From an uncultured Alphaproteobacteria bacterium (GTDB lineage Bacteria > Pseudomonadota > Alphaproteobacteria > Rhizobiales > Xanthobacteraceae): 64,000 nucleotides of DNA. How positions within the stretch are numbered: the first letter of the stretch is position 1; each line of letters begins with the position of its first letter. Below are positions 15,721 through 56,459 of this stretch, in pieces. The notes under the pieces were generated by a model that was given only the letters and a program-made list of their open reading frames with translations, did no database searches and was not told where the DNA came from. Both the position numbers and the translations under genes were made by a program. Location of the stretch: contig CAWGKM010000003.1 in the NCBI GenBank assembly GCA_963823225.1, forward strand, positions 1,584,274-1,648,273, in the 5' to 3' direction.

Positions 15721-16206
15721 ATGGCGAGCGAGACGGCCACCCGGCACAAGCGCGGCGGGCTTTATTTCGAGGATTTCGTCGCCGGCGAAGTCGTCGAGCA
15801 CCGTTTTACGCGCACCGTCACCCAGATGGACAACATGTTGTTCTCCAATATGACGCTCAACCCGCAGCCGCTCCATATCGACCGGCATTTCTGCGAACAG
15901 GAGACCGAATGGGGCCAGCCGCTGATGAACTCGCTGTTCACGCTCGGGCTGATGATCGGCATGTCGGTGAGCGATCTCACCGTCGGCACCACGATTGCCA
16001 ATCTCGGCATGACCGAGGTGAAATTCCCGCACCCCTTGTTCGAAGGCGACACCGTGCACGCCACGACCGAAATCCTCGGCAAGCGCGAATCGAAGTCGCG
16101 GTCCGGCGCCGGCATCGTCGAATTTCACCACCGCGCCTACAATCAGGATAACAAGCTTGTCGCCGAATGCCGCCGCCAGGCTTTTATGCGCATGCGGCCG
16201 AAGTAA
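15721..16206 (+). CDS. MaoC-like (R)-specific enoyl-CoA hydratase/dehydratase
   Basis: 161 aa with a hotdog fold. YFEDFVAGE...FSNMTLNPQPLHID matches the MaoC dehydratase signature. Confidence 0.8.
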   Translation: MASETATRHKRGGLYFEDFVAGEVVEHRFTRTVTQMDNMLFSNMTLNPQPLHIDRHFCEQETEWGQPLMNSLFTLGLMIGMSVSDLTVGTTIANLGMTEVKFPHPLFEGDTVHATTEILGKRESKSRSGAGIVEFHHRAYNQDNKLVAECRRQAFMRMRPK

Positions 16207-16223
16207 CCGCCCTGCCCCGGCCG

Positions 16224-17099
16224 ATGCGCTCGCTCCTGTTCGTTCCGGCCGATAGCGCCAAAAAACTCGCCAACGCCATGGCGAGCGGCGCCGATGCGGT
16301 GATCGTCGACCTCGAAGATTCGATCGCGCCCGACGGTAAGACGCGCGCGCGGCAGAGCGCGGCGGCGTTTCTCAAGGATGCCGTCACGGCCACGCCGCGC
16401 CCGTATCTTGTGGTGCGCGTCAACGGCTTGCAGACCGGGCTGACCGACGCCGATCTCGACGCCATCGCAGCGGCGAAACCGGACGCCATCATGCTGCCGA
16501 AGGCCGAGGGCGGCGCTTCCGTCGTTCACGCCGACGCCAAGCTCGCCGTGCGCGAGGCCCAAAACGGTTTGCCCGACGGACATATCAAGATTCTGCCGAT
16601 CGCCACCGAGACCGCGGCCGCCTTGTTCGTCGCCGGCACTTTTGCCGGCGCCAGCACGCGGCTGATCGGGCTGACCTGGGGCGCGGAGGATTTATCCGCC
16701 GAGCTCGGCGCGCACGCCAACCGCGACGCGCACGGCCGTTGGCTCGATCCATATCGGCTGGCGCGCGTGCTGTGCCTCGCCGCCGCCGCCAGTGCCGCCG
16801 TGCCGGCGATCGACACCGTCTATGTCGATTTCCGCGACAGCGACGGCTTGCGCCGCGAATGCGATGAGGCTTGCCGCGACGGCTTCGTCGGCAAGATGGC
16901 GATCCATCCGGCGCAGGTGCCCATCATCAACGAGGTATTCACGCCGTCGCCGGAAGCGCTGGCGCGCGCGCAGGCCATCGTCGATGCGTTTGCGGCCAAT
17001 CCCGGCGCCGGCGTCGTCGGCATCGGCGGCGTCATGTACGACCGGCCGCATTTGACGCGCGCCCAGCAATTGCTGGCGCGCGCCGACAAACCGGCATAG
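16224..17099 (+). CDS. CitE/HpcH-family CoA ester lyase (citryl-/malyl-/citramalyl-CoA lyase-like)
   Basis: MRSLLFVPAD...ADAVIVDLEDSIAP...MLPKAE is typical of citrate lyase beta-like proteins. Confidence 0.8.
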   Translation: MRSLLFVPADSAKKLANAMASGADAVIVDLEDSIAPDGKTRARQSAAAFLKDAVTATPRPYLVVRVNGLQTGLTDADLDAIAAAKPDAIMLPKAEGGASVVHADAKLAVREAQNGLPDGHIKILPIATETAAALFVAGTFAGASTRLIGLTWGAEDLSAELGAHANRDAHGRWLDPYRLARVLCLAAAASAAVPAIDTVYVDFRDSDGLRRECDEACRDGFVGKMAIHPAQVPIINEVFTPSPEALARAQAIVDAFAANPGAGVVGIGGVMYDRPHLTRAQQLLARADKPA

Positions 17100-17105
17100 G
17101 GCGCG

Positions 17106-17906
17106 ATGAGTTCGACAGCACAAAAAGCCGCCCAAAAGGCCGCCCTGATCACCGGAGCCGCGCGCGGGATCGGGCTTGCGACCGCCAAACGATTCCTTGC
17201 CGACGGTTGGCGCGTCGCTCTGCTCGATATCGACACCGAGACGCTCAATCGCACGCACGCCGCATTGGCCGAGCCCGATAAGACAATCGCCATCATTTGC
17301 GACGTTGCCGATGCTGCCGGCGTTACCGACGCGGTTGCAACCGTCGCGAAAAATTTCGGCCGGCTCGATGCGCTCGTCAACAATGCCGGAATTGCGATCT
17401 TCAAGCCGATCCTCGACGTCACCTACGAGGATTGGTCGCGCGTCTTGGCCGTCAATCTCACCGGCCCGTTTCTGTGTACGCAGGCGGCGACGCCGCTGAT
17501 GCGCGACAGCGGCGGCGGCGCCATCGTCAACATTACATCCATATCGGGGCTGCGCGCTTCGACGCTACGCACGGCCTACGGCACGAGCAAAGCGGGCCTT
17601 GCGCATCTCACCCAACAGCAGGCGGTCGAACTGGCGTCACTCGGCATCCGGGTCAATGCCGTCGCGCCGGGGCCGGTGAACACCGCCATGGCGAAGTCCG
17701 TCCACACCCCGGAGATCCGCGCCGCCTATCACGACGCCATCCCGCTCAACCGCTATGGACTGGAACAAGAGCTCGCCGAAGCGATCTTCTTCCTGTGCAG
17801 CGACCGCGCCAGCTATATCACCGGACAAACGATCGCGGTCGACGGCGGATTTGAAGCTACAGGCATTGGCCTGCCGGCGCTGCGCGGGAGCGGGCGGAAT
17901 AGCTGA
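17106..17906 (+). CDS. SDR-family oxidoreductase
   Basis: TGAARGIG glycine motif, NNAG, and the YGTSK catalytic motif. Confidence 0.85.
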   Translation: MSSTAQKAAQKAALITGAARGIGLATAKRFLADGWRVALLDIDTETLNRTHAALAEPDKTIAIICDVADAAGVTDAVATVAKNFGRLDALVNNAGIAIFKPILDVTYEDWSRVLAVNLTGPFLCTQAATPLMRDSGGGAIVNITSISGLRASTLRTAYGTSKAGLAHLTQQQAVELASLGIRVNAVAPGPVNTAMAKSVHTPEIRAAYHDAIPLNRYGLEQELAEAIFFLCSDRASYITGQTIAVDGGFEATGIGLPALRGSGRNS

Positions 17907-17910
17907 GCGC

Positions 17911-18000
17911 CTATTTCCGATACGCCGCTTTCGGATCGAACACTTTTTCGCCGGCGAATTCGAGCTTGACCGCACCCGGTTTGCCAAGCGGCACGGCGCG
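17911..18000 (-). pseudogene. Orphan duplicate of the hisI 3' end (last ~29 codons plus stop)
   Basis: About 93% identical to 18755-18845. Translates to [29 protein letters not shown], against the live hisI C-terminus [29 protein letters not shown]. Confidence 0.85.
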
Positions 18001-18099
18001 AGCAATTGCTGGCGCACTCCCTCTCTCCGCGCGGCGCAGAGAGGTGAACTAGAAACTCGATCCCACGGCGCGATTGCGCGCGGGTTTGTCAAACAGCGA

Positions 18100-18262
18100 A
18101 CGGTACCGGCCGTCATTGCGAGGAGCGAAGCGACGACCCACCTTCGCTCGCTTCGTGAGCTACGGTGGGTTTGAGTCCACCGAAGCGGAGCGCGTAGGTG
18201 GAAGCAATCCAGAGCGGAACGGTAAAGAACTGGATTGCTTCGCTTGCGCTCGCAATGGCGAA
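18100..18262. repeat. REP/RIME-like nested palindromes
   Basis: Inverted repeats: cattgcgag..(18113) with ctcgcaatg (18250); ggaagcaatccag (18200) with ctggattgcttc (18230); acccacc/ggtgggt; tccacc/ggtgga. Confidence 0.7.
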
Positions 18263-18659
18263 AGAAAGAAAGGAAGCGGAACGCCGGCAAACGCAGGGTA
18301 CTACCTCCCGCACCAAGCGGGTGCGGGTCGCGCCACGGAAAGGCGGCTTGCGCCGCCCTTCCGCTTGCGGGCGCGCTCGCCTGCCGGCGTTCCACCACGG
18401 CTCTCGCCAGAGGGACTTACGTCGCCTCAGGCGCAACTCAGGCCAGGCTTCCTGGGACGCGGCCGCTTTTGTCGGGCGGCGTTACCGCCCCTGCCTGTCC
18501 CAGTCCAGCGAAGCACCTCGCACGCCGGTCGTAATGCCGGCAGGCATGATACCCAAGCCGCCCGGGAGCGCAGCTGATGAGGCCACGCCCGCGGGCACCG
18601 CACTCGCCCCCGCCGTCCGGCATCACCGGCCGGCGTCCTTTTAGGGCGAGATTTGATTC
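18262..18659 (-). ncRNA. Candidate ~400-nt structured non-coding RNA of unknown class
   Basis: Lies downstream of a near-consensus promoter. 12-bp long-range helix 18382-18393/18278-18289. GCAA-capped hairpin at 18337-18362, GUAA-capped hairpin near 18474-18491 enclosed by CTGGGAC/GTCCCAG, hairpin at 18307-18327, then a U-rich tract. No convincing ORF. Confidence 0.35.
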
Positions 18660-18665
18660 GTTGGT

Positions 18666-18694
18666 TTTATAACTGAAATCGTGACTAATGTCAA
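18666..18694 (-). promoter_or_regulatory. Sigma70-like promoter TTGACA-N17-TATAAA
   Basis: The minus strand reads tgTTGACAttagtcacgatttcagtTATAAAacc. It sits in an AT-rich patch between the hisI terminator and the GC-rich segment. Confidence 0.5.
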
Positions 18695-18720
18695 CAGAAC
18701 AGTGACGCGAGCCGGCGAGT

Positions 18721-18754
18721 GCAAAATTCGCCTCTCCCCAGCAGCGGGGAGAGG
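18721..18754 (-). terminator. Rho-independent-like terminator after hisI
   Basis: Perfect 9-bp stem CCTCTCCCC/GGGGAGAGG directly after the hisI stop, followed on the minus strand by CGAATTTTG. Confidence 0.55.
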
Positions 18755-19201
18755 TTATTTGCGATACGCCGCTTTCGGATCGAACACTTTCTCGCCGGCG
18801 AATTCGAGCTTGACCGCACCCGACTTGCCGAGCGGCACGGCGCGATAAAAGCACGAGCGCCGGCCGGTGTGGCAGGCGGCGACCGTTTGCTCGACCTTGA
18901 TCCACACCGCGTCCTGATCGCAGTCGATGCGCATTTCGACGACGCGCTGGGTGTGGCCGGAGGTCTCGCCCTTCTTCCACAGCGCACCGCGCGAGCGGCT
19001 GAAATACCATGCTTCGCCGGTTGCGATGGTCTTGACCAGCGCCTCGGCATTCATATGCGCCACCATCAGCACCTCGCCGGTGCCGGCATCGGTGGCGACG
19101 GCCGTGACCAGGCCGTCGCCGTCGAATTTCGGCGTCAGCGCAATGCCGTCTTCAAGATCGGCGGCGCCGCCCGGCGCTGCAAATGGTGAGTTCACCGCCA
19201 C
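18755..19201 (-). CDS. hisI: Phosphoribosyl-AMP cyclohydrolase
   Basis: [25 protein letters not shown]...[20 protein letters not shown]...DCDQDAVW is canonical HisI. Confidence 0.9.
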
Positions 19202-19322
19202 AACTGTCCCGCCTTTGCCGCCCGCTGCGCTTGCCGAACTTCAAATCCAATGCGGCAGCGCCTATATAGTGGATTATCAGGCGGACTCAATAAACCCAGC
19301 TACGGTCGGATAAATCCGCGAT

Positions 19323-19784
19323 TTGGCGATGCTCAACGAAGTCTATAACCGCCGCATTATCGAGCTTGCCGGCACCATCCCGCGGATCGGCAGGCTGGCC
19401 GATCCCGACGCGACGGCGACCGCGCTGTCGCGGCTGTGCGGCTCCACCGTCACCATCGATCTGAAGATGGACGGCGACACCGTGACCGACTTCGCCCACG
19501 AGGTGAAAGCCTGCGCGCTCGGCCAGGCGTCGTCTTCGATCATGGCGCGCAACATTGTCGGCTCGAAGGCCGCGGAGCTGCGCGAAATTCGCGAAACCGT
19601 GCGCAAAATGCTCAAAGAAAACGGCGCCCCGCCGGCCGACGGCAAATGGGCCGACATTGCGGTGCTCGAACCGGTGCGCGACTATAAGGCGCGCCACGCT
19701 TCGACGCTGCTCACCTTCGATGCCGTGGTCGACGCCATCGGCCAGATCGAGCAGAAACGCGGCGCCAAGGCCGCGGCGGAGTAG
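19323..19784 (+). CDS. Iron-sulfur cluster assembly scaffold protein (IscU/NifU N-terminal-like)
   Basis: LYNRRIIELAG-type N-terminus with conserved Cys context (SRLCGSTVTIDL...VKACALGQAS). Confidence 0.7.
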   Translation: MAMLNEVYNRRIIELAGTIPRIGRLADPDATATALSRLCGSTVTIDLKMDGDTVTDFAHEVKACALGQASSSIMARNIVGSKAAELREIRETVRKMLKENGAPPADGKWADIAVLEPVRDYKARHASTLLTFDAVVDAIGQIEQKRGAKAAAE

Positions 19785-54960: not shown

Positions 54961-55015
54961 TGGTGCGGACGGCCGGACTTGAACCGGCACGGGGTTGCCC
55001 CCAAGGGATTTTAAG
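54961..55015 (-). pseudogene. 3' half (anticodon loop to CCA) of a disrupted tRNA-Leu(UAA)
   Basis: The minus strand reads CTTAAAATCCCTTGGGGGCAACCCCGTGCCGGTTCAAGTCCGGCCGTCCGCACCA. No matching 5' half is adjacent. The partner lies at 56260-56297. Confidence 0.85.
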
Positions 55016-55154
55016 TCTTTGGAGGCTAGCAAAAAGCCCTTATTTCATTGGGTTTTTCGACCGTCAAATTCGAAGTGTGTAAGAAAGTGTGTGAGACTTA
55101 AATTCCTATCCACGTGCCATTGACGGAATTGCACGGTCTCGACAGGTTCGGAGG

Positions 55155-55385
55155 ATGCAATTCGAGATTCTCGGCGCAATTTCGCAGGTCGAGACGTTCG
55201 CCGCTGGGACCGGAATTCGTGAAATCGCGCGGCTACGCAGGATCTATGGGCGGGGCCGCTGGCGCAAACGCAAGGGCGTCGCTCGCATTCGATTGCCCAA
55301 TGGCTCTATTCATATGGCTGAAGTACACTGGTACGAAGCCAGCGGAATCGGCCGCAAGGAATTCAAGATCAAACATCTGCTTTAA
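55155..55385 (+). CDS. Small hypothetical protein (76 aa), first gene of a compact pair
   Basis: ORF MQFEILGAISQVETFAAG...RWRKRKGVARIRLPNGSIHMAEVHWYEASGIGRKEFKIKHLL. GGAGG sits immediately before the ATG. The family looks familiar but I cannot name it. Confidence 0.5.
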   Translation: MQFEILGAISQVETFAAGTGIREIARLRRIYGRGRWRKRKGVARIRLPNGSIHMAEVHWYEASGIGRKEFKIKHLL

Positions 55386-55396
55386 AACGCAAAGCC

Positions 55397-55627
55397 ATGG
55401 CAAAATCGCAAGCGAAGCAACTGGTCGTATGCGTCAGCAACGAGGGCTATTCGGCCTCGCTCGAAAAGCGCAAAATTTATGTCGCGCTCCGCGACGCCGA
55501 CGCCGAAAAGCATAGCCTGCTTCGGATCGTCGATAAATCCGGGGAAGACTATCTCTTCCCGAAATCATTCTTTCGTTCGATCGCCTTGCCGCAAGCCGTC
55601 AGGAAGGCCGTATTAGCGGCGGCATAA
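55397..55627 (+). CDS. Small hypothetical protein (76 aa), second gene of the pair
   Basis: Starts 11 nt after the first ORF's stop. MAKSQAKQLVVCVSNEGYSASLEKRKIYVALRDADAEKHSLLRIVDKSGEDYLFPKSFF. Confidence 0.5.
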   Translation: MAKSQAKQLVVCVSNEGYSASLEKRKIYVALRDADAEKHSLLRIVDKSGEDYLFPKSFFRSIALPQAVRKAVLAAA

Positions 55628-55912
55628 TTCCGCGACGCCTGGCGCCTAACCTGGGAAGGCTTCGCCATAACGGCACGCGGAGGCGCAGTCCAACGCCGCG
55701 GCGCCTGTCGCTCATTGGTGGACAATCACACCGAACTTCAGCATGTCATCCTGACGGCTGAACGCGTAGTTGAACAACGGCGATGCCGGCGGCGGCGGTG
55801 GCGTAACAAATCGTCTCACTACGCTCATGTTACGCATGAGCTTCGAGGGACATCCTTCGCCCAAGATGCGGCTTTGGCTAGCTGCGCCATCCGAAGCCCG
55901 CAGGGCGAAGGA

Positions 55913-56202
55913 TGGTGCGGGCGGCCGGAATCGAACCGGCACGGGGTTTCCCCCAACGGATTTTCGTACCAGCTACGGCTTTCACCGCCGCCGCGAATGG
56001 CGTTTGTGGTCTGGACTATACCTTCGCCGTAGCGTGAGCCTTAGGCGCTGCCCGTCTAGTCTCTACACCTTCCCTTTCGGGCTTGGCTCGGGATTGCCAT
56101 CTGACAGGTTTCCCCGACTTTGAGCAGTTCTACGTCTCGGGTTTCCCGCGAGCGCACTCAATTTCCTTAAGTCCGTTGCGTCTACCGTTCCGCCACGCCC
56201 GC
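55913..56202 (-). tRNA. tRNA-Leu (anticodon UAA) interrupted by a group I intron between U34 and A35
   Basis: Exon 1 (56202..56169) is GCGGGCGTGGCGGAACGGTAGACGCAACGGACTT. Exon 2 (55964..55913) is AAAATCCGTTGGGGGAAACCCCGTGCCGGTTCGATTCCGGCCGCCCGCACCA. Joined, they give a complete class II cloverleaf. Confidence 0.85.
55965..56168 (-). ncRNA. Group I intron (IC3-like, 204 nt, no ORF)
   Basis: Core strings CUCAAAGUCGGGGAAACCU, AUGGCAAUCCCGAGCCAAGCC, GAAGGUGUAGAGACUAGACGGG and CCUAAGGCUCACGCUACGG match the remembered Azoarcus tRNA-Ile and Anabaena tRNA-Leu introns. U precedes the 5' splice site and the terminal nucleotide is G. Confidence 0.85.
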
Positions 56203-56259
56203 ATTGCGTTGATCACATACCCTGCCCGTCTGACCGGACAGCAGTCCTAAATTTGCAAC

Positions 56260-56297
56260 TTTTAAGTCCCTTGCGTCTACCATTTCGCCACGTCCGC
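56260..56297 (-). pseudogene. 5' half (position 1 to anticodon loop) of the disrupted tRNA-Leu(UAA)
   Basis: The minus strand reads GCGGACGTGGCGAAATGGTAGACGCAAGGGACTTAAAA. Its acceptor strand GCGGACG and anticodon stem AGGGA pair with CGTCCGC and TCCCT of the 54961-55015 fragment. Confidence 0.85.
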
Positions 56298-56459
56298 GAA
56301 GCGGACATCGATAAGGACGTCCGCGGAGCGGACATCCGTTCGGACATCCGCGCGGCGGCATTTGTAGCACTCGCGGCGCGTGCCCCGGAAGCGACGATAA
56401 ATTCGAAAAGGCCGATCCCGTCCCGATCCGGCCCGGCCCGCCGCAACGGTTAGGTCCGT

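Follow-up and report, generated by a model that had tools for sequence, protein, structure and literature searches.

Gene content of the hisI locus

The window analysed here is a stretch of 64,000 nt on contig CAWGKM010000003.1 of an uncultured member of the Xanthobacteraceae. The genome (G000) is a metagenome-assembled genome (MAG) from a soil metagenome, 4.83 Mb in size and 93% complete, which consists of three megabase-sized contigs. Within the window, hisI, the gene for phosphoribosyl-AMP cyclohydrolase, is faced by two genes on the opposite strand, a citE-like gene and a gene of the short-chain dehydrogenase/reductase (SDR) family, and is followed on its other side by a NifU/IscU-like gene. 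The 3' end of hisI occurs twice. One copy (copy B) completes the live gene, while the other (copy A) is stranded on the far side of a 754-bp block (18001-18754). The features of this locus are collected in Table 1, and the present analysis concerns the way in which the duplicated gene end and the enclosed block came to lie there.

Table 1. Features of the hisI locus, in window positions. S-type stands for a citE-SDR-hisI junction and E-type for a citE-element-hisI junction, as described in the text.
Feature	Position	Strand	Remarks
Live citE-like gene (HpcH/HpaI aldolase / citrate-lyase beta family)	16167..17099	+	Pfam PF03328, E 1e-35
SDR gene	17106..17906	+	Pfam PF13561/PF00106; begins 6 nt past the citE stop; S-type-specific part of the junction
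Copy A, stranded hisI tail	17911..18000	minus	29 codons and TAG stop, without the 5' part
Putative merger junction word	18000/18001		GGCACGGCGCG/AGCAATTGCTGGCGC
Putative stranded citE tail (citE')	18001..18047	+	15-mer, then diverged tail ..QQLLAHSLSPRGAER; stop TGA 18045-18047
Predicted end of citE tail in an E-type junction without SDR			..GGCGCACTCCCTCTC
Module a (TTTGTCAAACAGC..CCGTCATTGCGAG)	18039..18136		Dispersed repeat, ~16-30 copies, usually on this side of the RNA gene
REP-like palindromic modules (cgtcattgcgag.. / gaagcaatccag..ctggattgcttc)	18134..18260		25-83 copies
GC-rich structured RNA gene, predicted transcribed part	18255..18661	minus	~35-41 copies in the genome
RNA-gene promoter (predicted)	18667..18695	minus	TTGACA 18695-18690, 17-nt spacer, TATAAA 18672-18667
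Right-end module	18695..18754	minus	Common to 5 copies
Hairpin CCTCTCCCC..GGGGAGAGG	18731-18754		Followed by CGAAUUUUG on the minus strand
Copy B, tail used by live hisI	18755..18844	minus	Ends in TAA
Live hisI (phosphoribosyl-AMP cyclohydrolase, 148 aa)	18755..19201	minus	Pfam PF01502, E 7e-36, residues 46-119
NifU/IscU-like neighbour of hisI	19323-19784		Conserved; synteny in relatives

The duplicated 3' end of hisI

Copies A and B are direct repeats that agree at 84 of 90 positions (93.3%, six differences); a BLAST comparison gave 94.4% identity over 17912-18001 and 18756-18845. Copy A begins 5 bases past the SDR stop codon (17904-17906), with 4 nt in between. Five of the six differences are synonymous changes at third codon positions, and the sixth, a proline in A and a serine in B, falls on a residue that is variable among relatives. 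The 90-mer of either copy was not found at any further place in the 4.83-Mb genome, and the duplicate is therefore neither a dispersed repeat nor a product of chance. The inner edge of the homology is abrupt: the shared ...GGCGCG is followed by AGCAATTG in copy A and by ATAAAAG in the live gene, and the edge at 18000/18001 matches the same codon of live hisI (the boundary after CFY). This boundary coincides exactly with the end of the phosphoribosyl-AMP cyclohydrolase catalytic domain (PF01502), which the live gene retains in full, and the repeat starts at the hisI stop codon.

An earlier reading of this DNA, made from the sequence alone, had described much of this geometry. It had reported that 17911-18000 is about 93% identical to the hisI end and lies 5 bases past the SDR stop, that it encodes the last 29 HisI codons and stop with a single amino-acid difference, that the homology ends abruptly at 18000/18001 and at the equivalent codon of the live gene, and that live hisI uses one 3' end while the other is stranded beyond a non-coding block. 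All of these observations are borne out, the partner of copy A being 18755-18844.

The citE side of the joint

The 15-mer AGCAATTGCTGGCGC (18001-18015) directly abuts copy A and is also present at 17065-17079 in the tail of the live citE gene; these are its only two occurrences in the genome. When 17996-18050 was aligned with the citE tail, the local alignment score was 37, a value reached by none of 500 shuffles. Read in the citE frame, 18001-18047 would continue past the 15-mer into QQLLAHSLSPRGAER and end in TGA; the live citE protein ends in QQLLARADKPA and that of a relative (L090, below) in QLLLARALHPDPR. Two dead gene ends, one of hisI and one of citE, would accordingly face each other back to back at 18000/18001, as far as the similarity to citE can be followed. 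A hairpin (18020-18044) lies within this stretch. A comparable hairpin forms the left edge of many copies of the repeat family described below (window 18020-18047) and is then followed by TGA (...GGGGAGAGGTGA...), so that genes upstream may often owe their stop codon to such left-edge repeats.

Make-up of the 754-bp stretch

A search of the genome with 18001-18754, which the sequence-only reading had proposed as a check, returned 71 matches at ~40 loci. According to the coverage profile and the alignments, 18001-18038 is almost unique in the genome, and 18039-18754 is made of dispersed families of 5 to more than 80 copies, the best full-length siblings being 82-87% identical. From left to right, this composite (the element) comprises module a, the repetitive extragenic palindromic (REP)-like modules, which are backed by the coverage profile, by inverted repeats I9, I11 and I19 and by the alignment, the RNA gene with its promoter, and the right-end module. 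The right edge of the family, as defined by the alignment, is the junction with copy B. A hairpin scan placed the hairpin at 18731-18754 on the plus strand. Since this element-supplied hairpin starts 1 nt after the hisI stop codon, it may act as the hisI terminator. The RNA-gene promoter would fire downstream of hisI in the same direction, as judged from its position and strand.

No credible open reading frame (ORF) was found in 18001-18754, only spurious GC-rich ones, and no mobility gene. The ORF list for 15.5-21.5 kb of the window is likewise without a recombinase and holds only maoC, citE, the SDR gene, hisI, the NifU-like gene, an MBL-like gene and thrS. The insert is not bounded by terminal inverted repeats, and copies of the element have ragged ends. 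The earlier reading had seen no ORF in the cargo, whose parts it named as REP-like palindromes, a promoter and a segment that is GC-rich and structured, and these results agree with it.

A dispersed family of structured RNA genes

The core of the RNA gene (18262-18694) was found at 41 loci of the genome with 73-92% identity. Both promoter boxes are conserved across a 26-copy alignment, in which every copy has, on the minus strand, TTGACA, a 17-nt spacer and a -10-like box ahead of ~400 nt of GC-rich sequence; a consensus promoter scan called no promoter in the window copy, whose -10 box TATAAA has no T at position 6. At its 3' end, the gene has a 19-bp closing helix followed by the U-rich run UUUCUUUCUUUC.

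The evidence for a conserved structure comes from 21 copies. RNAalifold proposed 98 pairs, 18 of them with compensatory double changes, and 98% of the alignment cells were paired. The 18 two-sided pair changes compare with 9.3 ± 1.6 in shuffled alignments (none of 500 reached the observed value) and with 0-5 when the pairing partners were slid. The strand of the RNA is fixed by many invariant G-U pairs, and the window copy folds with a minimum free energy of -236.5 kcal/mol (z -5.8). In Rfam 15, the only matches of the window at the gathering score were tRNA and a group I intron, and relaxing the limit to E up to 10 still gave none in 18001-18754. Of 24 genomes of the genus, 23 have the family in multiple copies; at the DNA level, it was not found in 16 other families of the order. 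Taken together, the covariation and the promoter and end signals identify the core as a predicted RNA gene and not as an insertion-sequence relic. A group II intron or an ORF-less derivative of one was also considered and was rejected on three counts: there is no Rfam match, the GNRA hairpin has no domain V bulge, and this hairpin is missing in some copies.

About ten copies of the RNA gene carry or adjoin a transposase gene of the IS1595 family (Pfam PF12762/PF12760). This belongs to a separate unit of 1,858 bp with perfect 24-bp inverted ends (GGCGATTATCTGCCACTTGACTAT) that makes 8-bp duplications (ATTCGCAC, ATTCGCCA). It has entered repeatedly at ATTCGCNC, a point past the -10 box and ahead of the RNA start; one copy is located away from any RNA gene. 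The possibility that the element is a miniature inverted-repeat transposable element (MITE) or a deletion derivative of the IS1595-family element was rejected, as the latter has its own inverted ends and its own 8-bp duplications. The sites in question lie outside the window (G000 C1:201750-203152, C2:208190-209086 and C2:527334-529700). Two IS1595-family copies on C1 and C2 are 100% identical and have swapped flanking duplications (CATATATC / ATTCGCCA), which would be the mark of recombination between insertion-sequence copies on two contigs or replicons.

The citE-hisI junction in related genomes

The genus compared consists of uncultured soil Xanthobacteraceae MAGs, one of which is 'bog_931'. 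hisI and the NifU-like gene are adjacent throughout the genus, and in most of it maoC-citE converges on hisI with abutting stop codons (...TGATCA...). At the loci L015, L077, L079, L087 and L117, compared with window 17040-17110, the citE and hisI stops abut or overlap and no terminator lies between them. The C-terminal tails of the citE-like and HisI proteins vary greatly in sequence and length. In several relatives folE (GTP cyclohydrolase I) is located between hisI and the NifU/IscU-like gene (L012 1960-2628); G000 (window 19202-19322) and others have no folE at this place.

Two relatives, both of other species, show departures from this simple junction. L187 (CAVYGV010000001) has the order maoC-citE-SDR-66 bp-hisI-NifU, with one hisI tail and without the element. 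This is the empty arrangement that the sequence-only reading had suggested looking for, and it represents the S-type layout. L090 (CAWAEV010000041) has the citE stop, module a, a REP-like palindrome, 'cgaaagaaataa' with the first 32 nt of the core, ~95 nt and then the hisI stop. It has neither the SDR gene nor a duplication, and the order and orientation of its parts are those of the window; it represents a partly decayed E-type layout. In the window, everything to the left of 18000 is collinear with the S-type layout, and everything to the right of the joint is collinear with the E-type layout. For the six differences between copies A and B, comparison with the relatives gave no polarity, and it assigned neither copy to an allele of the L187 or the L090 kind. 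A look-up of the exact HisI and SDR proteins, aimed at relatives of strain level, returned no record of either.

The SDR gene lies between citE and hisI only in G000 and in L187 (one of the 80 loci, L185-L264, that were fetched with the SDR protein). Its homologues in G001, G003, G005 and G008 stand in unrelated contexts, and the homology does not extend past the coding sequence. Many genomes of the family have close homologues (80-90% protein identity), in differing neighbourhoods (L041-L043, L185-L264). The view of the SDR gene as part of a defined mobile unit was dismissed, as the homologues have only the coding sequence in common and the flanks differ in every genome. In L187, a short similar stretch occurs in both flanks of the SDR gene (...TAGCGAGC...; 6 of 500 shuffles reach the score), which hints that the SDR gene may also have entered with a target duplication.

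Long duplications around other copies of the element

The flanks of the element were surveyed for ~35 copies in G000 and for 89 copies from twelve other genomes (G003, G005, G007, G009, G011, G012, G013, G018, G019, G022, G023 and G024). Long flanking repeats are not a general trait of the element, being absent from 33 of the ~35 copies in G000 and from 88 of the 89 others. The whole genome, scanned for local direct repeats of low copy number, yielded 28 pairs, a few of which are 'naked' local duplications. Only the hisI pair and one further pair enclose mostly DNA of the element family; a different pair lies around an IS3-family element.

The second pair was identified by searching flank against flank (G000 C3:147114-147175 and 147867-147929). 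The repeat is 62 bp long, 92% identical and unique in the genome; it corresponds to the 3' end of a gene for a POT-family transporter (Pfam PF00854) and spans its stop codon. The pair brackets 691 bp with a hairpin, module a, a REP, the RNA gene and the promoter, and no extra templated filler was found at its junctions. The empty site is present in G050, G011, G023 and G015, where a single tail is followed by the sequence that comes after the distal copy in G000, namely a hairpin and an rpoH-like gene. In G005 this intergenic region also has an element, located ~1.8 kb farther along and past the ancestral hairpin, which is therefore an independent insertion.

The third case is found in G024 (L278, G024:C18:104400-108100), where 168 bp are duplicated at 1128-1294 and 2532-2699. 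These are the 5' end of a crotonase-like gene, a name that rests solely on a reading of its N-terminal motif; they span the start codon and enclose 1,237 bp with the same RNA gene. A 1-nt deletion shifts the frame of the stranded copy, whose differences are spread over all codon positions. The region of the ribosome-binding site of the live copy is similar to that of relatives. G073 has the same element-gene junction with a single copy of the gene start, and G007 and G018 are without the element. The interior of this insert (L278 1295-2531) has 1,052 bp in common with a sibling at a different locus of G024 (L279, G024:C17:113920-114978). Of these, ~850 bp are ~98% identical and the adjoining ~200 bp ~85%, a mosaic that suggests gene conversion between dispersed copies (concerted evolution). 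The three duplicated targets (62, 90 and 168 bp) are unrelated sequences with no common attachment core.

Origin of the hisI structure

The obtained results indicate that the hisI structure is, very probably, the scar of a long target duplication that arose without site-specific integration. For the route, we favour a merger of two versions of the citE-hisI junction, a proposal that we regard as probable but hold with clearly less assurance. Two structurally different versions of the convergent junction would have existed in the lineage or population, an S-type (citE-SDR-hisI) and an E-type (citE-element-hisI). A single illegitimate join would have connected the S-type hisI at codon 119/120 to the E-type citE 15 codons before its end. 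The join would be head to tail, everything to the left of 18000 being S-type and everything to the right E-type, so that both genes were kept intact and each left a stranded tail in the middle. Probably, DNA of a related strain would have been taken up and resolved by a homologous exchange together with a non-homologous one; two chromosome copies that exchanged unequally would be an alternative. The 754 bp would not have integrated by themselves; one parent would already have had the element at this junction.

This route explains the back-to-back tails and the citE 15-mer, as well as the right edge of the element family falling at the hisI stop codon. It also explains the mostly synonymous differences between A and B, which are expected if both tails evolved inside working genes, and the occupied alleles without a duplication (L090, G073). 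Several points weigh against it. No genome with the exact predicted parental alleles was found at strain level, and the two informative relatives are diverged from the window, with ~82-87% DNA identity for L187 and 85% in citE for L090, the latter having lost most of the RNA gene. The assignment of 18016-18047 to a citE tail depends on a weak similarity past the 15-mer, and the same stretch also resembles hairpins at the left edge of other element copies. With six differences, the codon-position argument is weak (p ~0.02, and only if all changes were neutral), and the neutral decay and frameshift of the stranded copy in G024 fit either view. All three cases involve the same element family, and insertion itself could make the duplications. 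Moreover, the incoming side, S-type or E-type, is not distinguishable, and the genome is a MAG.

The main rival to the merger is an insertion in situ, in which a copy of the composite element entered a citE-SDR-hisI chromosome within the hisI tail and the insertion itself duplicated 90 bp of target, by widely staggered cuts or by replication template switching, with the 15-47 nt citE-like piece as filler from 936 bp away. All three target-element-target (T-X-T) cases enclose the same family, including both repeat-enclosing cases in G000, the POT empty sites in relatives are clean, and the G024 sibling at another locus shares the 1,052 bp with the insert there. Long variable direct repeats of 8-514 bp are known for IS1634/IS1549 of the IS1634 family (PMC2266710). 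Such repeats accompany only 3 of the ~125 copies examined, however, and the element has no terminal inverted repeats and no young copies (92% identity at best in G000). Transposition of the IS1634 type was rejected, as NF033559 had no match in the 93% complete genome, and the insertion would need an enzyme of unknown kind, or three template switches for the citE piece. L090, which has the element between citE and hisI without a duplication, and G073, which has the element-gene junction of G024 without the duplicate, also speak against it, and we consider an insertion in situ unlikely. A DNA transposon or MITE was rejected on the lack of terminal inverted repeats, the ragged ends and the duplications of 62, 90 and 168 bp. 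It is quite doubtful that the RNA gene and its REP-like escorts form an active mobile element of a new kind, without transposase gene or inverted ends. If this were true, the insertion of the element, perhaps replication-coupled or RNA-guided, would itself create 60-170-bp target duplications, and an RNA element would enter the ends of essential genes without killing them.

The back-to-back order of a hisI tail and then a citE tail would also be yielded by a local tandem duplication of the junction (citE and hisI tails, ~125 bp), followed by independent entry of the SDR gene and the element into the copies, and a few 'naked' local duplications do exist in the genome. This sequence of events is quite improbable, as the SDR gene is shared with L187 and the element with L090, both of which are far more diverged than A is from B. 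The data point to insertions of the SDR gene and the element that are older than the split between A and B, and after the duplication each insert would need to have returned to its former place, a coincidence that would be required at the POT site as well. An assembly artefact, in which the metagenome assembler concatenated co-existing S-type and E-type strains, would suit a MAG from a soil metagenome and a structure that is exactly S-type plus E-type, and the synonymous-only look of the differences resembles strain variation. The overlaps available are only 90 and 15-47 nt, and long reads of several kb would span the 1.8-kb structure; the joint at 18000/18001 would have to exist in reads, the three contigs are megabase-sized, and the same kind of structure occurs at a second locus of the genome and in another MAG. 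We therefore rate an artefact as very improbable.

The sequence-only reading had seen here the layout left by an element that integrates into the 3' end of a gene and brings a replacement end, which would make the 754 bp a site-specific integrative element with the hisI 3' end as its target, or the remnant of one. The layout does resemble attL/attR at gene 3' ends, the empty site exists in L187, and one tail probably did come in along with the element, having flanked it in another version of the locus. The remainder of that proposal does not stand. Neither the insert nor the DNA beside it holds an integrase or transposase, terminal inverted repeats are absent, and the cargo consists of dispersed repeats apart from the stranded citE tail at its left end. 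A fixed attachment site or a replacement end carried by the element is contradicted by other copies of the family, which are flanked by unrelated duplications (62 and 168 bp) or by none (more than 120 copies), and an element that targets hisI leaves the left 47 bases, the apparent stranded tail of the convergent neighbour citE, without explanation. Site-specific integration is consequently an extremely remote explanation for this locus.

Comparison with known systems

Insertion with long target duplication was defined by Furuta, Abe & Kobayashi 2010 (PMC2853133), after Nobusato et al. 2000 (Gene 259:99). The class comprises unique repeats of 46-423 bp around restriction-modification genes, with empty sites in related genomes and no other mobile element; the repeats often span a start or stop codon and leave the gene intact, and the mechanism is unexplained (PMC2853133). 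The present cases agree with it in having unique direct repeats far above the size made by transposons (62-168 bp), and all four defining features are found here: unique repeats longer than 30 bp, an empty site, the absence of a mobility gene and a spanned start or stop codon. They differ in the cargo, with an SDR gene to one side and, to the other, a non-coding composite of RNA gene and REP-like modules. They also differ in that both parental layouts are visible in relatives and that the scar brings stranded ends of the two convergent genes together back to back, an arrangement suggesting that two alleles merged. The structure is a variant of a known, poorly understood kind of rearrangement.

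Islands and prophages of tyrosine recombinases in the 3' ends of tRNA or protein genes present a similar picture, as a duplicated 3' end brackets foreign DNA there too and the gene stays functional, completed by one copy. Here, in contrast, there is no recombinase gene and no att core common to the three targets, one case duplicates a 5' end, and the cargo is a multi-copy resident repeat. IS1634/IS1549 share the long variable target duplications around an inserted element; they are autonomous, however, with a DDE transposase and inverted ends, and neither an IS1634 transposase nor inverted ends are present here. Homology-facilitated illegitimate recombination during DNA uptake reportedly combines one homologous anchor with one illegitimate joint (de Vries and Wackernagel are said to have described it in 2002). 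The exchange proposed for hisI would likewise use a homologous anchor and an illegitimate joint, but the classical outcome replaces or deletes recipient DNA, and the outcome here is a duplication.

The element itself resembles the mosaics of REP/BIME/REPIN type, in which palindromic modules accumulate past convergent genes, and its core resembles the ornate RNAs OLE, ROOL, GOLLD and HEARO in being a large, GC-rich, covarying RNA, here without an Rfam family. It differs from both in that the RNA gene itself is dispersed (~35-40 copies per genome) together with a promoter and flanking modules. There is no linkage to a protein gene, and the IS1595-family elements insert into the RNA gene and do not encode it.

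The sequence-only reading had also drawn a parallel with a tRNA-Leu gene elsewhere in the window (54961-56300, minus strand). The parallel is no more than formal; the cargo at tRNA-Leu is unique and bears ORFs. The gene is split in its anticodon loop by a group I intron (Rfam hit 55992-56178) and is missed by ARAGORN. Its 3' half has a stranded 52-nt copy (54961-55012, 90% identical to 55913-55964) beyond 900 bp of unique, non-repetitive DNA with two small ORFs, and a further fragment similar to the 5' half lies at ~56240-56300.

Implications

For annotation, copy A and 18001-18047 should be labelled as gene fragments and not as an att site. The locus offers a rare case of long target duplication in which both parental layouts are visible in relatives. 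An unexplained class of rearrangement would thereby gain a concrete and testable route, in which alleles of different structure undergo a homologous exchange and an illegitimate one. The case further suggests that tightly abutting convergent genes can be separated, and can gain neighbours, terminators and promoters, without the loss of either gene. Finally, it brings to light an undescribed, genus-wide, multi-copy family of predicted RNA genes in uncultured soil Xanthobacteraceae that is tied to structural polymorphism at gene ends.

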